A stretch of DNA of 17,614 nt from Thermoanaerobaculia bacterium (GCA_044226625.1 JBGAGQ010000093.1:1-17614), one strand, 5' to 3'. Positions 5,795 through 15,629 are shown, numbered from the stretch's first letter. A program made the numbers and translations. Notes: generated by a model from the letters alone, not told the origin.

Positions 5795-6679
5795 ATGTCG
5801 AGCAGCGGCATCTCGAATACGGGGCATCGTCCGGGCCTACTGATCGCCATCGGCGGCGCCGAGGATAAGACCCGCGAGCGCAAGATTCTTCGCCGTTTCG
5901 TCGAGGAAGCGGGCGGCTCGAAAGCGAAGATCGCGATCCTCGCGACGGCCTCGGCGCTTCCCGATACCGGGGAGAAGTACCGCGAGGTGTTCGACGCGCT
6001 CGACGTGCCGGAGATCCTGGTGCTGAACGTTCCGGATCGCGCGGCGGCGTTGGAGCTCGGCGCTCCGGTGCTCGAAGCGCTCGAAGCGGCGACCGGCTTC
6101 TTCATGACCGGGGGAGGGCAGCTGCGGGTCACCTCGGCGCTCGGCGGCACGCCGATCGCGGCGGCGATCCGCCGCCGCCACGCGGAGGGGCTGGTGGTCG
6201 CCGGCACGAGCGCCGGCGCGTCGCTCCTTTCCGAGCACATGATCGCGTTCGGCGAGGGAGGAGGGACGCCGCGGCAGCGTCAGGTGCAGATGGCCAAAGG
6301 GCTCGGTCTCGCGCCGGGCGTGATCATCGACCAGCACTTTCGGCGCCGCGACCGCCTCGGCCGCCTGCTCACCGCGCTCTCCTACAACCCCGAGCCGATC
6401 GGGCTGGGCATCGACGAGGACACCGCCGCGGTGATCGAGCCGAGCGGCATGCTCACCGTGCTCGGCAGCGGCACGGTGACGATCGTCGAAGGGGCGGGGC
6501 TGACTTACACCGACACCCACCATGCGTTGCCCGGCAAGCCGCTCACGTTGCTCGGCCTGCGGCTCGACGTCTTATCCGACGGGGCGCGCTACGACCTGGC
6601 GCGTCGGCGCGGCCTGCCCCCGCTCGACGAGCCGGTTCCCGTGGCCGATCCCGAGGAAGTCGCGCTCGCCGAAAGCTGA
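5795..6679 (+). CDS. cphB: Cyanophycinase (peptidase S51)
   Basis: IAIGGAEDK N-terminus, FMTGGGQLR, nucleophile motif GTSAGA, IIDQHF..R.RLGRL and GIDEDT. Lies directly upstream of cphA. Confidence 0.95.
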   Translation: MSSSGISNTGHRPGLLIAIGGAEDKTRERKILRRFVEEAGGSKAKIAILATASALPDTGEKYREVFDALDVPEILVLNVPDRAAALELGAPVLEALEAATGFFMTGGGQLRVTSALGGTPIAAAIRRRHAEGLVVAGTSAGASLLSEHMIAFGEGGGTPRQRQVQMAKGLGLAPGVIIDQHFRRRDRLGRLLTALSYNPEPIGLGIDEDTAAVIEPSGMLTVLGSGTVTIVEGAGLTYTDTHHALPGKPLTLLGLRLDVLSDGARYDLARRRGLPPLDEPVPVADPEEVALAES

Positions 6680-6757: not shown

Positions 6758-9535
6758 ATGAAGATTTTGGAGACGCGGGTCTACCGTGGGCCCAACCTAT
6801 ACGCCCTCCGGCCGGTGATCCGGCTGAAGGTCGATCTGATGGAGCTCGAGCAGTACCCGACCTTGAAGCTTCCCGGCTTCGTCGACCGGCTGCTCGCCAC
6901 GATGCCGTCGCTCGCCGAGCACACCTGTTCGTACGACACCCCGGGCGGGTTCGTCCGCCGGATGACCGAGGACGAGGGCACCTGGCTGGGTCACGTTCTC
7001 GAGCACATGGCGCTCGAGTTCCAGTGCCTTGCCGGTACTCCCGTCACCTACGGAAAGACCCGCTCGCACGGGCTCCCGCTGGGGCAATACCACGTCATCT
7101 ATAGCTATCTCGAGGAGAGCGTCGGCCTGCGCGCGGGCGAGCTCGCCTTCCAACTGCTGCGCACGCTGCTGCCGCCCGAGCGCGAGGCCTACGACCCCGA
7201 GCCGTTCGACTACGCGCACAACCTCGAGCGTCTGGTCCGTCTGGCGCAGCGGCGCGCGTTCGGTCCCTCGACCGCGGCGCTGGTGAAGGCCGCGGAGGAT
7301 CGCGACATCCCGTGGATCCGGTTGAACAACCGGTCGCTGGTGCAGCTCGGGCACGGCAAGTTCCAGCGTCGCATCCAGGCGACGGTCACCAGCGAGACGC
7401 GGCACATCGCGGTGGAGATCGCCTCGGATAAAGAGCTCACGAACCGCATCCTCCACGACTTGGGCCTACCGGTGCCGCGCCAGCAGCTGGCGTACGACGC
7501 CGAGGAGGCGGTGGCGGCGGCGCACAAGCTGGGCTTCCCCGTGGTGGTCAAGCCGCTCGACGGCAACCACGGCCGTGGCGTGTCGATCAACCTCGCGACC
7601 CCCGAGCAGGTCGAGACCGCTTTCGGCAAGGCCGAGGAGCGTTCGGGCACGGTGATCGTCGAGACGTTCCAGACGGGCAACGACTACCGAATCCTGGTCG
7701 TCGGCGGAAAAGTGATCGCGGTCTCCGAGCGGGTTCCCGGCCACGTGATCGGCGACGGTAAGCAGACCATCGAGCAGCTGATCGACGAGGTGAACGCCGA
7801 CCCGCGGCGCGGCGTCGGTCATGAGAAGGTGCTCACCCGCCTGGAGGTGGACCATCAGGCGCTCCGTCTGCTGGAAGAGGCGGGCCTGACGCTCGAGTCG
7901 ATCCCGGAGGCGGGGAGAGTGGTCTCCCTCCGCTCGACGGGAAACCTTTCGACGGGCGGGACCTCGATCGACCGCACCGACGTCATCCATTACGACAACC
8001 GGGTGATGGCCGAGAGGGCGGTGCGCGCGGTCGGCCTGGACGTCGGCGGCGTCGATTACATCTCGCCCGACATCTCGAAAAGCTACAAGGAAGTCGGCGG
8101 CTCGATCGTCGAGATCAACGCCGCGCCGGGCTTCCGCATGCACACCAGCCCGACCGAAGGTCCGGCGCGCGACGTGGCCGGGCCGGTGATCGACCTGCTG
8201 TTCCCGACCGGCACGCCGTACCGGATCCCGATCGCCGCGATCACGGGGACCAACGGCAAGACGACCACGACGCGGATGGTCGGGCACATCCTGAAGCTCG
8301 CCGGCCACACGGTCGGCATGGCGACTTCGGATGGCGTCTACATCGACGGCCAGCTCACCGTTCGCGGCGACCTCACCGGCCCGTGGGCGAGCCACCTGGT
8401 GCTGCGCGATCCGACCGTCGACGCGGCGGTTCTGGAGACCGCGCGCGGCGGCATCGTTCGCTCCGGTCTCGGCTGGCGCAAATGCAAAGTCGGCGCGGTG
8501 CTGAACATCGCCTCCGACCACCTGGGTCTCGGCGGGATCGACGACCTCGACGATCTGGCCGAGATCAAACAGGTGGTGGTCGAGGTCGCGCAGGAGGTCT
8601 GCGTCCTGAACGCCGACGACCCGCGCGTCGCGCGCATGGCGGCCGAGAGCCCGGGGCAGCCGTTTTACGTGACGATGGAGGCCACGAACGATCTCGTGCG
8701 CCGTCACGTGCGCGAGAAGGGGCGTGCCATCGCGCTCGAAGAGAGCCTGAACGGCCGCCTGATCGCCCTCTACGACGGCGAGGAGCACGTGCCGGTCCTC
8801 TGGGCGCATCAGATTCCCGCGACGGTCGACGGCCACGCCCTCCACAACGTGCAGAACGCGATGTTCGCGACGGCGATCGCCCTCGGCATGGGGGTGTCGC
8901 TCGAAAACGTCCGCCTCGGCCTGCGCACCTTCTCGACCGACTTCTTCCAGGCGCCCGGCCGGCTCAACTTCTACAACGAGCTACCGTTCCGCGTGATCCT
9001 CGACTACGCCCACAACGCCCACGGCATGGCGGCCGTGGCCCAGACCGTCCGCGCGCTCACCGTCCGCGGGCGGCGCATCGGCGTCATCTCCGCCCCCGGC
9101 GATCGGCGCGACGAGGACATCATCGATTTGGCCCGGGAGGCGGCACCCGCCTTCGACCTGATCATCCTGCGCGAGGACGACCAGAAGCGCGGCCGACGTC
9201 CCGGCGAAGTGGGGGAGATCCTCCGACGGGGCCTGCTCGAAGCCGGCTATGCCGAGGAGCGCATCGTCCCCGGGGTCTACGACGAGCAGGAAGCGATCGA
9301 GCGCTCGCTGGCGACCGCCGAGCCCGGCGACCTCCTGGTCATCTTCGGCGACGACCTCCAGCGCGCCTGGAGCCTGATCACCGGCTTCGGCAAGCCCGGA
9401 GGCGGAGAGGCCGCCCCGGCCTTCGCCGCCGCGGCGGGCATCGCCGCCGAGCCTTCGCGCACCGAGCGCCGAGACCCGCCGCGACCGCCCCGGAGATCCT
9501 CCCAGCCGGTCGAGCCGCAAGAAGCCGCTGACTGA
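6758..9535 (+). CDS. cphA: Cyanophycin synthetase CphA1
   Basis: N-domain (RGPN..., HTCS...GGF..R...GT..GHVLEH), ATP-grasp domain (FGPST, VVVKPLDGNHGRGV, NLSTGG, EINAAPGFRMH) and Mur-ligase-like domain (ITGTNGKTTTTR, ETARGG, DHLG, PGRLN, DYAHN, GDRRD). Confidence 0.97.
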   Translation: MKILETRVYRGPNLYALRPVIRLKVDLMELEQYPTLKLPGFVDRLLATMPSLAEHTCSYDTPGGFVRRMTEDEGTWLGHVLEHMALEFQCLAGTPVTYGKTRSHGLPLGQYHVIYSYLEESVGLRAGELAFQLLRTLLPPEREAYDPEPFDYAHNLERLVRLAQRRAFGPSTAALVKAAEDRDIPWIRLNNRSLVQLGHGKFQRRIQATVTSETRHIAVEIASDKELTNRILHDLGLPVPRQQLAYDAEEAVAAAHKLGFPVVVKPLDGNHGRGVSINLATPEQVETAFGKAEERSGTVIVETFQTGNDYRILVVGGKVIAVSERVPGHVIGDGKQTIEQLIDEVNADPRRGVGHEKVLTRLEVDHQALRLLEEAGLTLESIPEAGRVVSLRSTGNLSTGGTSIDRTDVIHYDNRVMAERAVRAVGLDVGGVDYISPDISKSYKEVGGSIVEINAAPGFRMHTSPTEGPARDVAGPVIDLLFPTGTPYRIPIAAITGTNGKTTTTRMVGHILKLAGHTVGMATSDGVYIDGQLTVRGDLTGPWASHLVLRDPTVDAAVLETARGGIVRSGLGWRKCKVGAVLNIASDHLGLGGIDDLDDLAEIKQVVVEVAQEVCVLNADDPRVARMAAESPGQPFYVTMEATNDLVRRHVREKGRAIALEESLNGRLIALYDGEEHVPVLWAHQIPATVDGHALHNVQNAMFATAIALGMGVSLENVRLGLRTFSTDFFQAPGRLNFYNELPFRVILDYAHNAHGMAAVAQTVRALTVRGRRIGVISAPGDRRDEDIIDLAREAAPAFDLIILREDDQKRGRRPGEVGEILRRGLLEAGYAEERIVPGVYDEQEAIERSLATAEPGDLLVIFGDDLQRAWSLITGFGKPGGGEAAPAFAAAAGIAAEPSRTERRDPPRPPRRSSQPVEPQEAAD

Positions 9536-9722: not shown

Positions 9723-9751
9723 TTGACAGATTCTAGCGGTCGGGCAAGATT
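9723..9751 (+). promoter_or_regulatory. Sigma70-type promoter candidate upstream of the 20-nt array
   Basis: Perfect TTGACA (9723-9728), a 17-nt spacer, then AAGATT (9746-9751), within an AT-enriched stretch. Confidence 0.55.
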
Positions 9752-9793
9752 GTGCGCGTCATGCATACTCACTATGTTTCCCGGGTGAATCGG

Positions 9794-10198
9794 GAATCTG
9801 CTGGCTGCGCACCGGATCTCCCGGTCGCGGCACAAATTTCCTGGTGGCACCCGGGATTTCCTGGCGACAGCGCAAATCGGCTGGTCGCACTCTGGATTTG
9901 CTGGGCGGCCTGTCTGAGGGGCTGGCCGCGCCTGGGGTTTTGCTGGCCGCGCGCTACACCGACGGTTTTCACCGAGAAAAAGGCTGGCGACGCTCCGGAT
10001 CGGCGAACCGGAGATCTGAAATTTCCTGGCTGCGCTCCCAATTCGCTGGCGGAGCTCCAAATCGGCGGGTCGCGCTCCAAATTGGCTGGCGGATCTGGAA
10101 CCAGCGGATCGGAGAGTACGGCCAGAGACTCCCAAACCACGACCCGGAGATTCGAAGCGCGGCTGGAAGATTCCCGTCGCGGCCGGAAGGCCGTGAGC
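9794..10198 (+). repeat. Degenerate tandem array with ~20-nt period (core RRATYNSCTGG)
   Basis: The CTGG-type core recurs at 9801, 9821, 9841, 9861, 9881, 9901, 9922, 9943, 9984, 10026, 10046, 10066 and 10086. A related 20-nt periodicity (GCGGCYGGAAG) continues at 10159 and 10179. Confidence 0.8.
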
Positions 10199-10272
10199 CA
10201 AACCCAGCCGATCGTCCAATTCCTGAAACCCGTCGGCATGACGCCGGCTGGTTCTTTAGTAGGAGGCTTTTG

Positions 10273-10665
10273 ATGAGACAGCGGTACTACGCAGACCTGG
10301 CCAACGCATGGAACGTGATGGTCGAAAACGCCCGGCCCGTTTTGGAGGCGCTCGGTCCCGCGGCGTCGCGGCACGAGGTGCTCGGTCAGAAGATGGGCGA
10401 GCTCATGCGCCTCAACGAAGAGGCCGAAGGGCACCGCTCGGAGCTGGCGCGGGTGGTCAAGTTGAGAAAGGAGGCGGCAGCCACGGGTAACAAAGTCTTC
10501 CGTCGGTTCGCGGCGGATCTCCAGGCCCATCACGGCTTCGACAGCGCCGAGCTGATTCGCTACGGGCTCCAACCGAAAGGGCGGGCGCGGAAGAAGAAGG
10601 AAGCTGCGACGGCGAAGGACGTGGCCGAGAAGGGACCGGAGAAGTCGACCCTCGTAGGAGCTTGA
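10273..10665 (+). CDS. Hypothetical 130-aa alpha-helical protein with G-x-x-S-x-x-L-x-x-Y-G-x-x-P motif and Lys/Arg-rich tail
   Basis: AGGAGG RBS at 10261-10266 before ATG 10273, so the ORF-track start at 9844 is probably too long. Amphipathic/coiled-coil sequence ending in HGFDSAELIRYGLQPKGRARKKKE, followed by a terminator. Confidence 0.8.
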   Translation: MRQRYYADLANAWNVMVENARPVLEALGPAASRHEVLGQKMGELMRLNEEAEGHRSELARVVKLRKEAAATGNKVFRRFAADLQAHHGFDSAELIRYGLQPKGRARKKKEAATAKDVAEKGPEKSTLVGA

Positions 10666-10690
10666 TCCTAGGTTCCTGAAGTCGTAACTC

Positions 10691-10724
10691 TCTACGGGCG
10701 GCTGGACCCCGCCCGTAGATTTTT
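10691..10724 (+). terminator. Rho-independent terminator
   Basis: 11-bp stem TCTACGGGCGG / CCGCCCGTAGA, loop CTGGACC, followed by TTTTT. Confidence 0.85.
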
Positions 10725-12143: not shown

Positions 12144-15100
12144 TTGAGCGCCACATTCGCGGCACACCGATTGCCGCCCCCTACCTTCCCATCTCGCGAG
12201 AGGGAAGCGCGAAGCTGGGAGATGGCGGCGCATGCCTTGACGCAGGGGACGGTGGTGGCGGTGGTGGGCGCGGGGTGCTCCGCGCCGCTCGGCTATCCGA
12301 CTTGGACGCAATTGACGTCCAGGATCGTCGAACTGACCCTCCAGCTCCTCGATCACCGCAAAACCCCCGACGATGCGGAGCTCCAGCGGGTCGCCCATTT
12401 CCGACAGCGACTGGCCGCGGAAGAATCACCGAGCTCCCAGGAGCTCATGTTCTACCTGGGCGCCTGCAAGACGCTGGTCGAACGGGCCGGAGCGGTGTCC
12501 GACTGCGACCGGACCTTCCGTGATTTGTTCTCCCCCGCGGGACGAGACGCCCCCGCCGACGCCAACCCTCACCGAGCCTTGCTGTCGCTGCAGATCTCGC
12601 GCTTCGTCACCACAAACTACGACTGCGCGCTCGAACAGGCGATCGCAGCGGAACGGAGGGTCGATTTCGCGAGGTTCGGAGTTGCTACGTCGGCGCCCGG
12701 CGGAGCGGACACGAAGATGGGGACGTTGTCCTTCACCCAACAGGCCGACAATTGCAGCCAGCTCGCGAGATTCGCCTTGGCGGTGGAGGAAGCGAAGAAC
12801 ATGGTGTTCCACTGCCACGGCCGGTTCGACGTCCCCGGCTCGATCATCGCGAGCGAGGCCGACTACCAACGATGGTACCTGCGACAGTCGCCCGACAGCC
12901 CGCCGTATTTCTTGCAGACCATCGACTTGCTGTTCGAATCGAATCCGATCCTGTTCGTCGGGTACGGATTGGGCGACGAGGACTTGCTCCGGCCGTTGCG
13001 CAGAATCGCGGCCTCGGCCCCCGAGCGCAGGCCGTATCGGCCGTTGTTCGCGCTGCTATCGGACGAGGGCGGAAAGGCCGACTCGGACCGTCACGACCGC
13101 ATGTTCGAACGGTACGGCCTCAACGTCCTCACTTACAACGAGTCCGGATCCGAAGATCCGGTGGAACGGGGACGCGATCTATCCGCCGCTCTCCGCAAGT
13201 TGGAATCGTATCGGCTGGAATGGCGCGACGGCTGGCTGGAAAAGCCGAGGTTCCGGCGTGTGACGGTGTCGACTCGGCCGCCGGAGCCCTATCGCCACTA
13301 CGACATCGACACGGGTTCGCCCTGGGTGCTGGGCGAGCGAAGGGTGGGCGAGGAGGTCGCTTCGCTGGTCGAATTCGCGCTCGACAGGGCACGGGTCATT
13401 CTGATCGTGGGCCCCGGGGGGACCGGCAAATCGTGGCACGCGACGCGCCTGCTCGAAGAGCTGACGCACCGAGGGGGTTTCGAAAGTTTCTTCTTCTGGA
13501 GCTCCTATTACGCGGACGACGCCCTCACCGGACTCGATCGCCTGGTCGCGTATATCGACCCGGAGGGCGATCGCAAGGAGTCCCGCCTGGCGAGAATCCG
13601 AAGAGCCCTTTCGCGAGGTCGGCACGCAATCGTCTTCGACGGCTTCGAGCGCCTGCTTCGACCGAGCCCGGACGACCCCGAGGTCGGCTTGAGCAACGAC
13701 CCGATCGTCAAGAAATTCCTGGAGATCTGTTCGGCGGAGAGCAGCGGCAGCACGCTCATCGTGACGAGCCGTCTGTGGCCGGCGGAGCTTCCGAGGGACG
13801 AGCCCAGGGTGCGGTTCAAGCCGCTCGAACGATTGCGGACCGACGACCTCCTTGCCGTCGAGATCTTCCGCCGCTTGGATCGCGATCAGGTCTCGATGCT
13901 CTGCGCGCTGCTGGAGGGCCACGCCTATGCCTCGCTGCTCGCCGGGCGGTTTCTTGGCTTCGTTCCGACCTCTCGGCTCGAACAGCAGTTCGTCTTGCTG
14001 CGACGCGCGCTGGCCGCCACTCCGCCGGACCGCCGCCTCGGAACGGTGATTCGATTGGTCCTGGATGCGGTGGACGAGCAGACGTTCTGCTTGGCCCGTC
14101 CGATGCTCGCGCGGCTCGCCGTCTTCATGAGTCCGGTGACCGACGCGACCCTCGCAGCCTGTTTCGCGCTGGCGGAGGAAGAAATGGGACTTGGCGGAGA
14201 CGCCGGGACGGCGGAGGCCGACGTCGTCGACCGTCTCCTTGAGGCGCAATTGATCTTCCGGGTCGTGGGTTGCCCGGGAGGACACGAGCCGGCGGCCTAT
14301 ACCGTGCACCCGACGGTCCGCAGTTTTGTCTTCGAGGGGTCGCAGCAGGTCGAAAGGGACGTCTTACCCAACTTTACGTTGGCCGGGTTCACCTCGGGGA
14401 AGGCCGCGGTGCATCCCGGAAGCACCGTCCAGGCCCGATGGGTGTCGGAACTCTTCACTCGATTGCACCGGGATGCTCAGGTCCAGGTGGAGGCGGGGCG
14501 CCACGACAAGGCGGTGCAGCTCTGCCGAAGCCTCTTTGGAGTGGTTCGCTCGCGGATGGAAGCGAACACGGCGCCCCGATGGTGCAGCTACCAGGACTAT
14601 CTCGGTTTCGGCGTGAGGGTAATCGACCTCGCCAAGTCGCTTTCGACTCGCTGGCTCTTTCGGGAGCGGCACGAATTGGACGAAGTCGAGGACGCGGCGT
14701 CTCCCCTCTACGCCGACGAGGTCGCGTTTTGCTACAACGACGTCGGCTTGGCGCTTTGCGCCGAAGGCTTCATGCGGGACACGCTCGACGTCTGGGAGCA
14801 AGGGTACGAGATCAACCGCCTCCTCGAAGGGATGGCGGAGGTGCCGCTCTATTCCCTCCAATCCCAGCTCCATCTGGGTCATACCTTCATCGAGATCGGC
14901 GACCTGAAGATGGCCAGCCAGTACCTGGAAGAAACCAAGCGGACGAATTTCAAGGTCAGCGATGTCGACTACGGTGCGCGCATCCTGGGCTATCAGGCGC
15001 TGGTCGCCCACTACCGCAACCATATCGAGGAGGCGGACCACAAATACAAGGAGGCGCTGCGGCAGCTCCGGGCTTCTGGAGGAAACGCGCGAGCCGAAAG

Positions 15101-15629
15101 CTACTTCCTTTGCCATCGGTCGAAATTGGCGATCACTCGCCACGATTTCGACCGGGCTTTGCGCTACATCAACTCGAGCCGCGCCCTGGCTCTGGCGAGC
15201 GGGGCCGTGGACCTGGTGGGATACGCGCGGGCGGCGCTTGGGCGATGGCATCGCGAACAGGGTAGGTTCGCTGAGGCGATCGCCGAGTATCAATCCGCCC
15301 TCGCCCTCAGCAAGGAGAAGGGAATCCATCGGCTGGAGGCCGAGATCCTCACCGGGCTCTCGAGAACCGCTCTTCTGCTCGGAGACGGCGAACTGGCTAG
15401 GCAACGGGCGATGGCCGCACTCGCGATCGGAAATGAGCTCGGCTTGGGACTTCGGATCACCCAAGGGCTTCTTGCACTCGGTCTGGCGATGCGCCAAGTC
15501 GGTCAGGCAGGCCTCGGTGGTGCATACCTGAGACTTGCGCGCGACCTCGGTAGCCGGCAGGAGTATTGGCTTCGAAGTAGAGAAGCCGAGCTGGCGTTGG
15601 CCGAGCTCGGAGATGGCTCGGTCCTTTAG
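12144..15629 (+). CDS. SIR2-like NADase + STAND/NB-ARC-like P-loop NTPase + TPR protein (bacterial NLR/Avs-like putative defence protein)
   Basis: SIR2_2 motifs VGAGCSAPLGYPTW, TTNYD, FHCHG and LFVGYGLGD. Walker A GPGGTGKS (13410-13433), Walker B IVFDGFE, sensor LIVTSR, GxP-region LEGHAYA, winged-helix VHPTVR, then C-terminal TPRs. Start is TTG 12144 (GGAG RBS) or ATG 12222. Confidence 0.85.
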   Translation: MSATFAAHRLPPPTFPSREREARSWEMAAHALTQGTVVAVVGAGCSAPLGYPTWTQLTSRIVELTLQLLDHRKTPDDAELQRVAHFRQRLAAEESPSSQELMFYLGACKTLVERAGAVSDCDRTFRDLFSPAGRDAPADANPHRALLSLQISRFVTTNYDCALEQAIAAERRVDFARFGVATSAPGGADTKMGTLSFTQQADNCSQLARFALAVEEAKNMVFHCHGRFDVPGSIIASEADYQRWYLRQSPDSPPYFLQTIDLLFESNPILFVGYGLGDEDLLRPLRRIAASAPERRPYRPLFALLSDEGGKADSDRHDRMFERYGLNVLTYNESGSEDPVERGRDLSAALRKLESYRLEWRDGWLEKPRFRRVTVSTRPPEPYRHYDIDTGSPWVLGERRVGEEVASLVEFALDRARVILIVGPGGTGKSWHATRLLEELTHRGGFESFFFWSSYYADDALTGLDRLVAYIDPEGDRKESRLARIRRALSRGRHAIVFDGFERLLRPSPDDPEVGLSNDPIVKKFLEICSAESSGSTLIVTSRLWPAELPRDEPRVRFKPLERLRTDDLLAVEIFRRLDRDQVSMLCALLEGHAYASLLAGRFLGFVPTSRLEQQFVLLRRALAATPPDRRLGTVIRLVLDAVDEQTFCLARPMLARLAVFMSPVTDATLAACFALAEEEMGLGGDAGTAEADVVDRLLEAQLIFRVVGCPGGHEPAAYTVHPTVRSFVFEGSQQVERDVLPNFTLAGFTSGKAAVHPGSTVQARWVSELFTRLHRDAQVQVEAGRHDKAVQLCRSLFGVVRSRMEANTAPRWCSYQDYLGFGVRVIDLAKSLSTRWLFRERHELDEVEDAASPLYADEVAFCYNDVGLALCAEGFMRDTLDVWEQGYEINRLLEGMAEVPLYSLQSQLHLGHTFIEIGDLKMASQYLEETKRTNFKVSDVDYGARILGYQALVAHYRNHIEEADHKYKEALRQLRASGGNARAESYFLCHRSKLAITRHDFDRALRYINSSRALALASGAVDLVGYARAALGRWHREQGRFAEAIAEYQSALALSKEKGIHRLEAEILTGLSRTALLLGDGELARQRAMAALAIGNELGLGLRITQGLLALGLAMRQVGQAGLGGAYLRLARDLGSRQEYWLRSREAELALAELGDGSVL

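Follow-up and report, generated by a model that had tools for sequence, protein, structure and literature searches.

Phased 20-Nucleotide Arrays Accompany a Family of Small Helical Proteins in Thermoanaerobaculia and May Be Their Binding Sites

INTRODUCTION

Short tandem repeats next to the gene of a protein that binds them are familiar from plasmids and phages. The iterons recognized by Rep and O initiators are direct repeats of ∼17–22 bp set about two helical turns apart. A looser mode of binding is that of nucleoid proteins of the H-NS/Lsr2 type, in which a helical oligomerization domain is combined with a short basic, AT-hook-like element and AT-rich DNA is bound with little specificity. 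In the parC/ParR systems of R1 and pSK41, as described in excerpts of one account (PMC5016525), a block of tandem repeats lies just upstream of the operon for a small dimeric binding protein and doubles as the site of autoregulation. For sopC/SopB of F and the OB sites of KorB, excerpts of the same account (PMC5016525) describe short inverted repeats within longer iterons, present at one locus or scattered over the genome.

Here we describe an array of 20-nt units that precedes a gene for a small protein, which we call B, in a 17,614-nt stretch of DNA from a Thermoanaerobaculia bacterium (the window). By analogy, the closest known devices are the arrays of plasmid centromeres and iterons together with the small proteins that bind them. 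As in parC/ParR, a tandem-repeat block stands upstream of a small-protein gene, the product of which is predicted to dimerize, and the repeats of the pSK41 centromere are themselves 20 bp long. ParR is a ribbon-helix-helix protein, and the model of B is all-helical, with generic helical fold matches (Z at most 7.3). No motor of the ParM/ParA type recurs beside the 19 B genes of the genome, and instead of one plasmid site there are ∼100 chromosomal arrays with, apparently, ∼14 specificities. Palindromic cores within longer tandem units, and a home site accompanied by scattered sites, are shared with sopC/SopB and KorB, but SopB and KorB are helix-turn-helix proteins of the ParB family with ParA partners, to which B is unrelated by sequence, and the repeats of sopC are 43 bp long whereas the arrays here have a period of 20–21 bp.

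The resemblance to iterons lies in the ∼20-nt tandem direct repeats that adjoin the gene of a presumed binding protein. Unlike in iteron replicons, there is no Rep-type protein (B being without a Pfam or NCBIfam match) and no evidence of an origin, and in place of the single origin there are 104 arrays spread over many contigs and all intergenic contexts, many of them convergent. REP, BIME and foldback repeats are likewise multicopy and intergenic, and the forward run followed by a reverse run in arrays of the window's type recalls them; they differ from the present arrays with their 20–21-nt units, fixed period, many plain direct arrays of palindromes and link to the B family. Finally, B resembles H-NS and Lsr2 in having a long helical region predicted to dimerize and a basic tail, without any match to them in sequence or fold, and the arrays are phased, putatively cognate sites in contrast to loosely bound AT-rich DNA.

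RESULTS

The array lies downstream of a gene for cyanophycin synthetase, and its parts and flanking features are given in Table 1. The eleven units listed in an initial annotation of this DNA are all present exactly as quoted there, and the GGAGG, the B gene and the terminator are likewise as it described them. The 20-nt autocorrelation peak, which it had proposed to measure against shuffled controls, is significant: base identity over 9790–10100 reaches 0.423 and 0.432 at lags 20 and 40, as against 0.27 in shuffles (z of 5.84 and 5.87, respectively, from 500 dinucleotide-preserving shuffles), and the 99th percentile of the best-lag z in the shuffle null is 3.64. Tandem Repeats Finder called the best-kept part alone (10026–10090, period 20, 3.2 copies, 73% matches). 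A position-weight scan added a forward unit at 9936 and reverse-complement units at ∼10006–10017, 10100–10111 and 10142–10153, and because of these reverse-complement units the end of the array was set at ∼10176. The two ends are complementary (9791–9830 with 10137–10176, 78% over 40 nt) and form the closing helix of the predicted RNA fold. Complementarity is also seen between 9815–9828 and 10003–10016.

Table 1. Features of the array and its flanks, with positions counted from the first nucleotide of the window
Feature	Position	Strand	Remarks
Promoter-like element, TTGACA-17 nt-AAGATT	9723..9751	+	TTGACA 9723-9728, AAGATT 9746-9751; read directly
Whole array	9794-10176		∼12 forward and 3-4 reverse 20-nt units; weight-matrix scan
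Forward-unit run 1, six 20-nt units (RRATYTSCTGGC...)	9794..9913	+	Spacing exactly 20 nt
Degenerate middle	9914..10018	.	Two forward units (9936, 9977) and one reverse unit (∼10006-10017)
Forward-unit run 2, four 20-nt units	10019..10098	+	Tandem Repeats Finder, unit reading, weight-matrix scan
Reverse-complement units	10099..10176	-	Close the array against 9791-9830
GC-rich leader hairpin	10232..10248	+	Right before the ribosome-binding site
Ribosome-binding site, GGAGG	10262..10266	+	6 nt ahead of ATG; read directly
Gene B	10273..10665	+	130-aa helical protein, tail basic and disordered; the genome has 19 paralogues, this one included
Intrinsic terminator	10691..10724	+	11-bp stem (10691-10719) and T run; called by scan; kept in G003

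A coding reading of the array was ruled out, as no ORF with coding-like GC3 overlaps it and units of the same type in another genome (G023) contain stop codons; together with a codon-position GC contrast of 0.08, this agrees with the original view that the array is not a peptide repeat. The units are also contiguous and degenerate and have no spacers, so that the layout is not that of a CRISPR, again as first proposed. Readings of the unit as a sigma-54 element, DnaA box, Chi or CsrA site were dropped by eye for their poor fit, and Rfam covariance models gave no match in the whole window at E up to 1. Among contigs from four DNA runs (with partial cover outside run X1), no variation in unit number was seen. 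One of the four runs contains two substitution variants.

The claimed promoter is a more qualified case. The TTGACA-17-AAGATT element is present as read, but it falls below the criterion of a consensus promoter scan, which left it uncalled because its −10 hexamer matches at only 3 of 6 positions. At the orthologous locus of a second genome of the genus (G003), a promoter-like element (TTGACT-18 nt-GACAAT) stands in a comparable place upstream of the array, and this element, the array, the gene and the terminator are all kept. Hairpins similar to the one in the leader of the window's gene are found in most leaders of its paralogues.

Window-type units are not confined to the window, which is contig C101 of a genome of 6.6 Mb in 133 contigs (G000). 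Two further arrays of this type, at C76:126907–127340 and C76:221202–221636, share 90% identity across 436 nt and lie in inverted orientation at a distance of 94 kb, and a decayed remnant lies at C76:145.7–146.5 kb, giving a set of one home array, two orphans and a remnant. A three-unit pattern search of 81 genomes from the same GTDB family detected the unit in six: five of the eight genomes of the genus (G000, G001, G003, G006 and G007) and, outside it, only G023, from another genus of the family, where the unit reads AGATTAGCTGGGCCGTCGTA. In a class-wide sample it was present in 2 of 151 genomes, both of the window's genus. The pattern run backwards as a control matched only G015 (7 times) and G217 (twice), neither of which has the forward pattern. 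A pattern scan of a wider genome collection returned mostly scattered single matches in unrelated bacteria, which were not taken as relatives.

The consensus from 207 units at 13 loci is RRATYTSCTGGC-nGnRCTCC, with positions 2, 3, 7, 9 and 10 conserved at 94–98% and positions 6, 12 and 14 nearly free, the units having been picked by positions 0–11. A forward run is followed by a reverse run at 18 of 18 loci of the genus, and the arrays are multicopy, intergenic and able to fold back, with a fold z of about −3.8 on both strands. These 18 loci fall into about seven syntenic groups whose neighbors are unrelated housekeeping genes (among them EamA, NadA, MFS, MacB/FtsX and 2OG oxygenase), and they therefore represent neither 18 independent events nor a link to one neighbor. 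Orthologous arrays at syntenic sites correspond unit by unit across species, and their identity is 0.82 at box positions compared with 0.69 at other positions, a contrast of suggestive value only, since an alignment of repeats may be off by one unit and thereby inflate the box identity. Our first idea, that the window's protein has nothing to do with the arrays because copies lie beside unrelated genes, was revised after the paralogues had been checked.

Across the genome we counted 129 strongly periodic segments, 102 of them with a lag of 20, 21 or 40–43; all but one of the remainder have lags that are multiples of 3. Removal of coding repeats left 104 non-coding arrays that add up to 40,918 nt, or ∼0.6% of the genome. 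They cluster by sequence into ∼14 unit types, and the period of 20–21.5 nt persists across units of unrelated sequence. Among the units are many 13-bp palindromes, such as GGAAGT-N-ACTTCC, found at the home locus on C125, and GGATCA-N-TGATCC, the type found on C1; other home loci have a GATTCTC-type unit (C76:31 kb) or GAATTCGAATTTC (C11). The frame CCAG-5 nt-N-5 nt-CCAG is common to types I and III, which differ in their half-sites. Of the arrays that could be placed (n = 91), 27 are in convergent, 46 in tandem and 18 in divergent spacers, and a further 13 lie at contig ends. About 85 of the 104 have no B gene nearby, and 10 of the 13 non-coding clusters with at least two members combine gene-less orphans with one or more home arrays linked to B. 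In this genome, none of the 8 arrays of type II or the 5 arrays of type VI is linked to a B gene; type VI has such a link in G001, and the B concerned has no orthologue in G000 (best match 37%).

The 19 B paralogues of the genome were collected by HMM search. A non-coding array with a 20–22-nt period lies within 700 nt upstream of 13 of them, compared with 85 of 4169 crude gene calls (one-sided Fisher p = 1e-18), and 20–22 nt is the best autocorrelation lag of the upstream kilobase in 16 of the 19. The B genes at C14:17249 and C123:69189 have an array that was hidden by the gene-overlap filter, those on C1 and C111 have one ∼1 kb away, the module on C46 has the order array-A-B (A being the neighbor gene described below), and C57 is the one true exception without an array. 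Apart from B, no partner family other than A recurs beside the 104 arrays.

The association extends to other genera. Best-hit B loci were inspected in 18 genomes other than G000, and an array of 20–22-nt period stands within ∼600 nt of 11 of them, upstream in seven and downstream in four. The initial annotation had proposed a search for arrays upstream of homologues, and with 13 of 19 paralogues at home and 11 of 18 best-hit loci elsewhere the outcome is positive. In five other genomes of the genus, B loci of four clades keep the unit type of their G000 counterpart at 12 of 18 loci: 6 of 7 in the C13 clade (GATAGC-N-GCTATC), 2 of 3 in the C125 clade (GGAAG-type), 4 of 6 in the C1 clade (GATCCCGCG-type) and 0 of 2 in the C14:16827 clade, where the sequence upstream of one locus is just 208 nt long. 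Across species, a B clade and its unit type are passed on as a pair, and linkage alone would lead one to expect that a gene and the array adjacent to it are co-inherited.

The window's own B has an orthologue in G003 only (86% identity over the core), where it comes with a window-type array. Matches in G002 and G004 are orthologues of the paralogue on C111 and have a related 21-nt forward/reverse array. In G001, G006 and G007 the window-type arrays are regular, the best relatives of the window's B are 30–39% identical, and no B gene stands beside any of the window-type arrays fetched from these genomes. The locus had been introduced as a self-contained unit, and this description stands in part: array and adjacent gene do form a unit, which is kept in G003, but with 19 modules and 104 arrays in the genome it is not self-contained, and both the gene-less window-type copies and the arrays of the three genomes that lack the orthologue speak further against that word.

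ORF clustering of the 3 kb around the 19 B genes returned as recurrent families A, proteins of the HTH and TPR kind and three unknowns; no ATPase or motor of the ParA, ParM or TubZ type was recurrent within that distance. Gene A encodes a protein of the Pterin_4a/DCoH fold (PF01329) and occurs upstream in 6 of the 19 modules, the window's module not among them. Five of the six A proteins score at or above the 26-bit cut-off of the PF01329 model and the sixth reaches 25.8 bits. The array directly follows A in four modules (C125, C76, C13 and C109). Inspection by eye of the alignment of all six A proteins showed no His-His-Pro, the catalytic motif of pterin-4a-carbinolamine dehydratase/DCoH. XRE-HTH and TPR proteins are found near 3 of the 19 modules.

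B relatives carry the labels Thermoanaerobaculia or Acidobacteriota. The protein was found in 22 of the 24 family genomes that were searched, was matched once, weakly, among 16 genomes of sister families and gave no match when its profile was run against 299 other Acidobacteriota genomes; B is thus confined to one family of Thermoanaerobaculia, bar the one weak match. At E up to 0.001, a search of 1.84 billion proteins found at least 1087 representatives (clusters at 50% identity). B has no family match in Pfam or NCBIfam (none of 30 relatives has a Pfam hit), no family and only two weak single-member matches in PHROGs, and no relative among PDB sequences by profile (best E 0.54); in the ESM Atlas only unnamed Acidobacteriota clusters were matched. 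None of the Pfam, NCBIfam, PHROGs and PDB sequence searches revealed a recognizable DNA-binding domain, a point that counts against DNA binding by B.

Orthologues of B are well conserved, with a mean column identity of 77% in 25 sequences. The structural model consists of helices only, at residues 2–86 and 91–96, followed by a disordered basic tail. P-K-G-R-P-R-K occurs in the closest relatives of the window's B, which itself reads GRAR in place of GRPR. Foldseek found no PDB match for the model at E up to 0.001, and VIA-align wide found generic helical hairpins only, the best with a Z of 7.3 over 58 residues. Prediction of a dimer gave a score of 0.74, compared with 0.00 for the best of three controls; among proteins of solved structure, 20 of 30 homomers and 1 of 23 monomers come up to this mark, counts that are rough as a calibration because the prediction for B used an alignment of its own. 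At least 97% of contacts are common to the dimer runs, and the partner has a pLDDT of at least 88. The model supports an antiparallel dimer of B along the whole helical part, which would place a basic tail at each end.

DISCUSSION

Given that no described system was matched in Rfam, Pfam, NCBIfam, PHROGs or the PDB, and that a literature search found no publication on these arrays and B (most subscription journals lying outside its coverage), the view of the initial annotation, which did not recognize the locus as a described system, holds against the databases and published accounts searched. The data as a whole point to the arrays and B as an undescribed protein-plus-binding-site system. The reading that we favor, with a probability of roughly 45%, is that B dimers bind their own arrays on DNA, one unit corresponding to two helical turns. 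Proteins of the B family would pair in antiparallel fashion into elongated dimers, each end of which bears a basic tail, and these dimers would sit on double-stranded sites repeated every 20 or 21 bp. Since this period corresponds to two helical turns, a row of B dimers could coat the array. Each paralogue would be paired with a unit sequence of its own. The array in the window would be the home array of the gene behind it, at which B may control its own synthesis, and gene-less copies of the same unit type would offer further docking places for the cognate B.

In favor of DNA binding by B we count the link to B genes, the narrow period, the operator-like palindromic units, the pattern of home and orphan arrays, co-inheritance, the want of a rival partner, the dimer model and the lack of an RNA signature. 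Against cognate binding we count the window-type arrays of G001, G006 and G007 that have no matching B, the types II and VI that have no home B in G000, and the co-inheritance that linkage alone would give. The 27 of 91 placed arrays that lie between convergent genes fit poorly with plain promoter control.

The same observations can be read in terms of a selfish or neutral repeat, that is, slippage-prone tandem or foldback arrays of the REP, MITE or satellite kind that disperse through the genome and are not bound by B, the B-linked copy being then the source copy of a small cassette or a favored landing place. We consider this unlikely, even though the many arrays that have no B nearby (∼85 of 104), in every intergenic context and with 27 in convergent spacers, are what such a repeat would leave, as are the 90% identical inverted duplicates of the window type, the persistence of arrays where the matching B is missing, the decay of one syntenic array in G000 and the position of 13 arrays at contig ends. 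What slippage leaves unexplained is a period of 20–21.5 nt across units of unrelated sequence, and the many palindromic units of a dimer type. Selfish dispersal also sits poorly with the unit-by-unit correspondence of orthologous arrays at syntenic sites and with the better conservation of their boxes (0.82 against 0.69, which unit slippage may inflate), and at the boundaries of the C76 copies no transposase, terminal repeats or target duplications were noticed.

Quite improbable, in our view, is an array that works as RNA, forming the 5′ leader of the B mRNA (with the orphans as separate RNAs) and carrying motifs or hairpins that are bound or processed, as in a CsrB-like sponge or a precursor. 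The window, G003 and one other genus all have a promoter-like element ahead of the array, and if these elements are real, the arrays would be transcribed as leaders and an RNA role would be possible. A conserved GC-rich hairpin separates array and ribosome-binding site in most B leaders, and in modules of the order A-array-B the array sits between two genes of the same strand. In the window itself the sense strand folds better than the antisense strand (−240.8 compared with −216.8 kcal/mol), but this is true of only 7 of 18 B-linked arrays (mean z of −4.6 sense and −4.4 antisense), and several arrays, such as those at C76:31026, C93 and C109, fold no better than shuffles. Arrays of the window type are strand-symmetric, a forward run preceding a reverse run at each of the 18 loci (∼7 syntenic groups), no Rfam model matched anywhere in the window, and a period fixed at two turns of the DNA helix has no obvious rationale in RNA. 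Of the two mechanisms offered by the initial annotation, DNA sites spaced at two helical turns suit these data better than an array of RNA.

A similarly poor prospect is that the arrays are DNA sites for another factor, such as the Pterin_4a-fold protein A or the XRE-HTH/TPR proteins, with B as the regulated output gene: A does lie directly upstream of the array in C125, C76, C13 and C109, HTH and TPR proteins are near three modules and arrays persist where no matching B is found, but only 6 of 19 modules have A and 3 have HTH/TPR proteins, and it is B alone that recurs at arrays genome-wide and across genera.

Should B bind the arrays, a plasmid-style device, in which a small dimeric protein is combined with tandemly arrayed sites for it, would have been expanded onto the chromosome in one bacterial family, with ∼19 paralogous specificities and ∼100 arrays, and the B proteins, so far unannotated and comprising at least 1087 clusters at 50% identity, would gain a role. 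It would also supply natural orthogonal protein/array pairs comparable to the lacO and tetO arrays used in imaging, and possibly a new layer of nucleoid organization in Acidobacteriota, a poorly studied phylum. If the arrays were instead selfish satellites, they would still be a new and unusually regular kind of bacterial repeat, one that breaks assemblies.

Binding of B to its own arrays could be taken further, to an address code in which ∼19 paralogous two-ended dimers each recognize an array type of their own, phased at 20/21 bp, and arrays of the same type are coated and perhaps bridged. Bridging would bring home locus and orphans together and so organize or co-regulate distant parts of the chromosome. 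We regard this extension as a long shot, less probable than any of the readings above.

If the pairing of B with its arrays is real, it would also make a test case for the diversification of DNA-binding specificity, with half-site swaps visible between close paralogues. In the home array on C13, half-sites of types I and III are mixed within single units, which, on the address-code reading, would hint that close paralogues form heterodimers.

Variation and Copies of the Arrays

Within the window array, which is a run of non-coding 20-nt units, two variants of positions 10000-10152 were present at similar depth in one public DNA run, differing at 15 positions, and these seem to represent a difference between two strains or haplotypes. 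Because such arrays break short-read assemblies, with 13 of the 104 found in this genome (G000) lying at contig ends, their true number is probably higher. Two arrays of the window's unit type are carried by a single contig, C76, in inverted orientation and 94 kb apart; they are 90% identical, which suggests either a recent duplication or that they form both ends of one rearranged segment.

Outside this genome, the backwards control pattern gave seven matches in G015 and two in G217, which suggests that other genera of this bacterial family hold additional 20-nt arrays built from different unit sequences. The three-unit pattern matched two to three times each in several Bacillaceae records (Sporosarcina, Gracilibacillus, and Bacillus sp.), at spacings that are multiples of 10 nt and commonly 60 nt, and these records may hold unrelated 20-nt-phased arrays.

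Leaders, Neighboring Genes, and Candidate Binders

Most leaders of the genes for B, the small, predicted helical protein family encoded beside some of the arrays, carry a GC-rich hairpin 15-45 nt 5' of the ribosome-binding site, the loop of which often contains CAT, and this hairpin could be a processing or stabilizing element. At the closest paralogue of the window's B, on contig C111, the array and its B gene lie ∼1 kb apart, with inserted genes in the intervening stretch, which includes minus-strand coding sequence. Elsewhere in the window, the Peptidase_S51 gene lies directly upstream of the cyanophycin synthetase gene, and the two are an ordinary cphB-cphA pair; the 1161-residue protein resembles STAND-type anti-phage defense proteins in its domain architecture.

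Features discussed in the text
Feature	Location	Strand	Remark
GC-rich leader hairpin	window 10232-10248		counterparts in leaders of other G000 B genes
Stretch between array and B gene	G000:C111:11021-12200		minus-strand coding sequence within
Window-type array (L002)	G000:C76:126907-127340		∼100-nt non-repeat tail
Window-type array (L003)	G000:C76:221202-221636		∼100-nt non-repeat tail
1161-aa protein	window 12144-15629	+	SIR2_2, AAA/NACHT-like, and TPR domains
Peptidase_S51 gene	window 5795-6679	+	cyanophycinase-like
Cyanophycin synthetase gene	window 6758-9535	+	
XRE-type HTH + TPR proteins	G000:C125:67808-69469, C13:8835-10514, C46:17494-19389		550-630 aa
Records with repeated three-unit pattern matches	L106, L115, L120, L122, L130, L134, L158		

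Proteins combining an XRE-type HTH with TPRs were found near three of the A-array-B modules, which combine a gene for A (a Pterin_4a-fold protein), an array, and a B gene (C125, C13, and C46), and are possible alternative binders or sensors. In the array adjoining the B gene on C13 (L214:1560-1780), GGAAG-type and GATAGC-type half-sites are joined in single units, e.g. GGAAGTCGCTATC, an arrangement that would fit heterodimers formed between two closely related paralogues.
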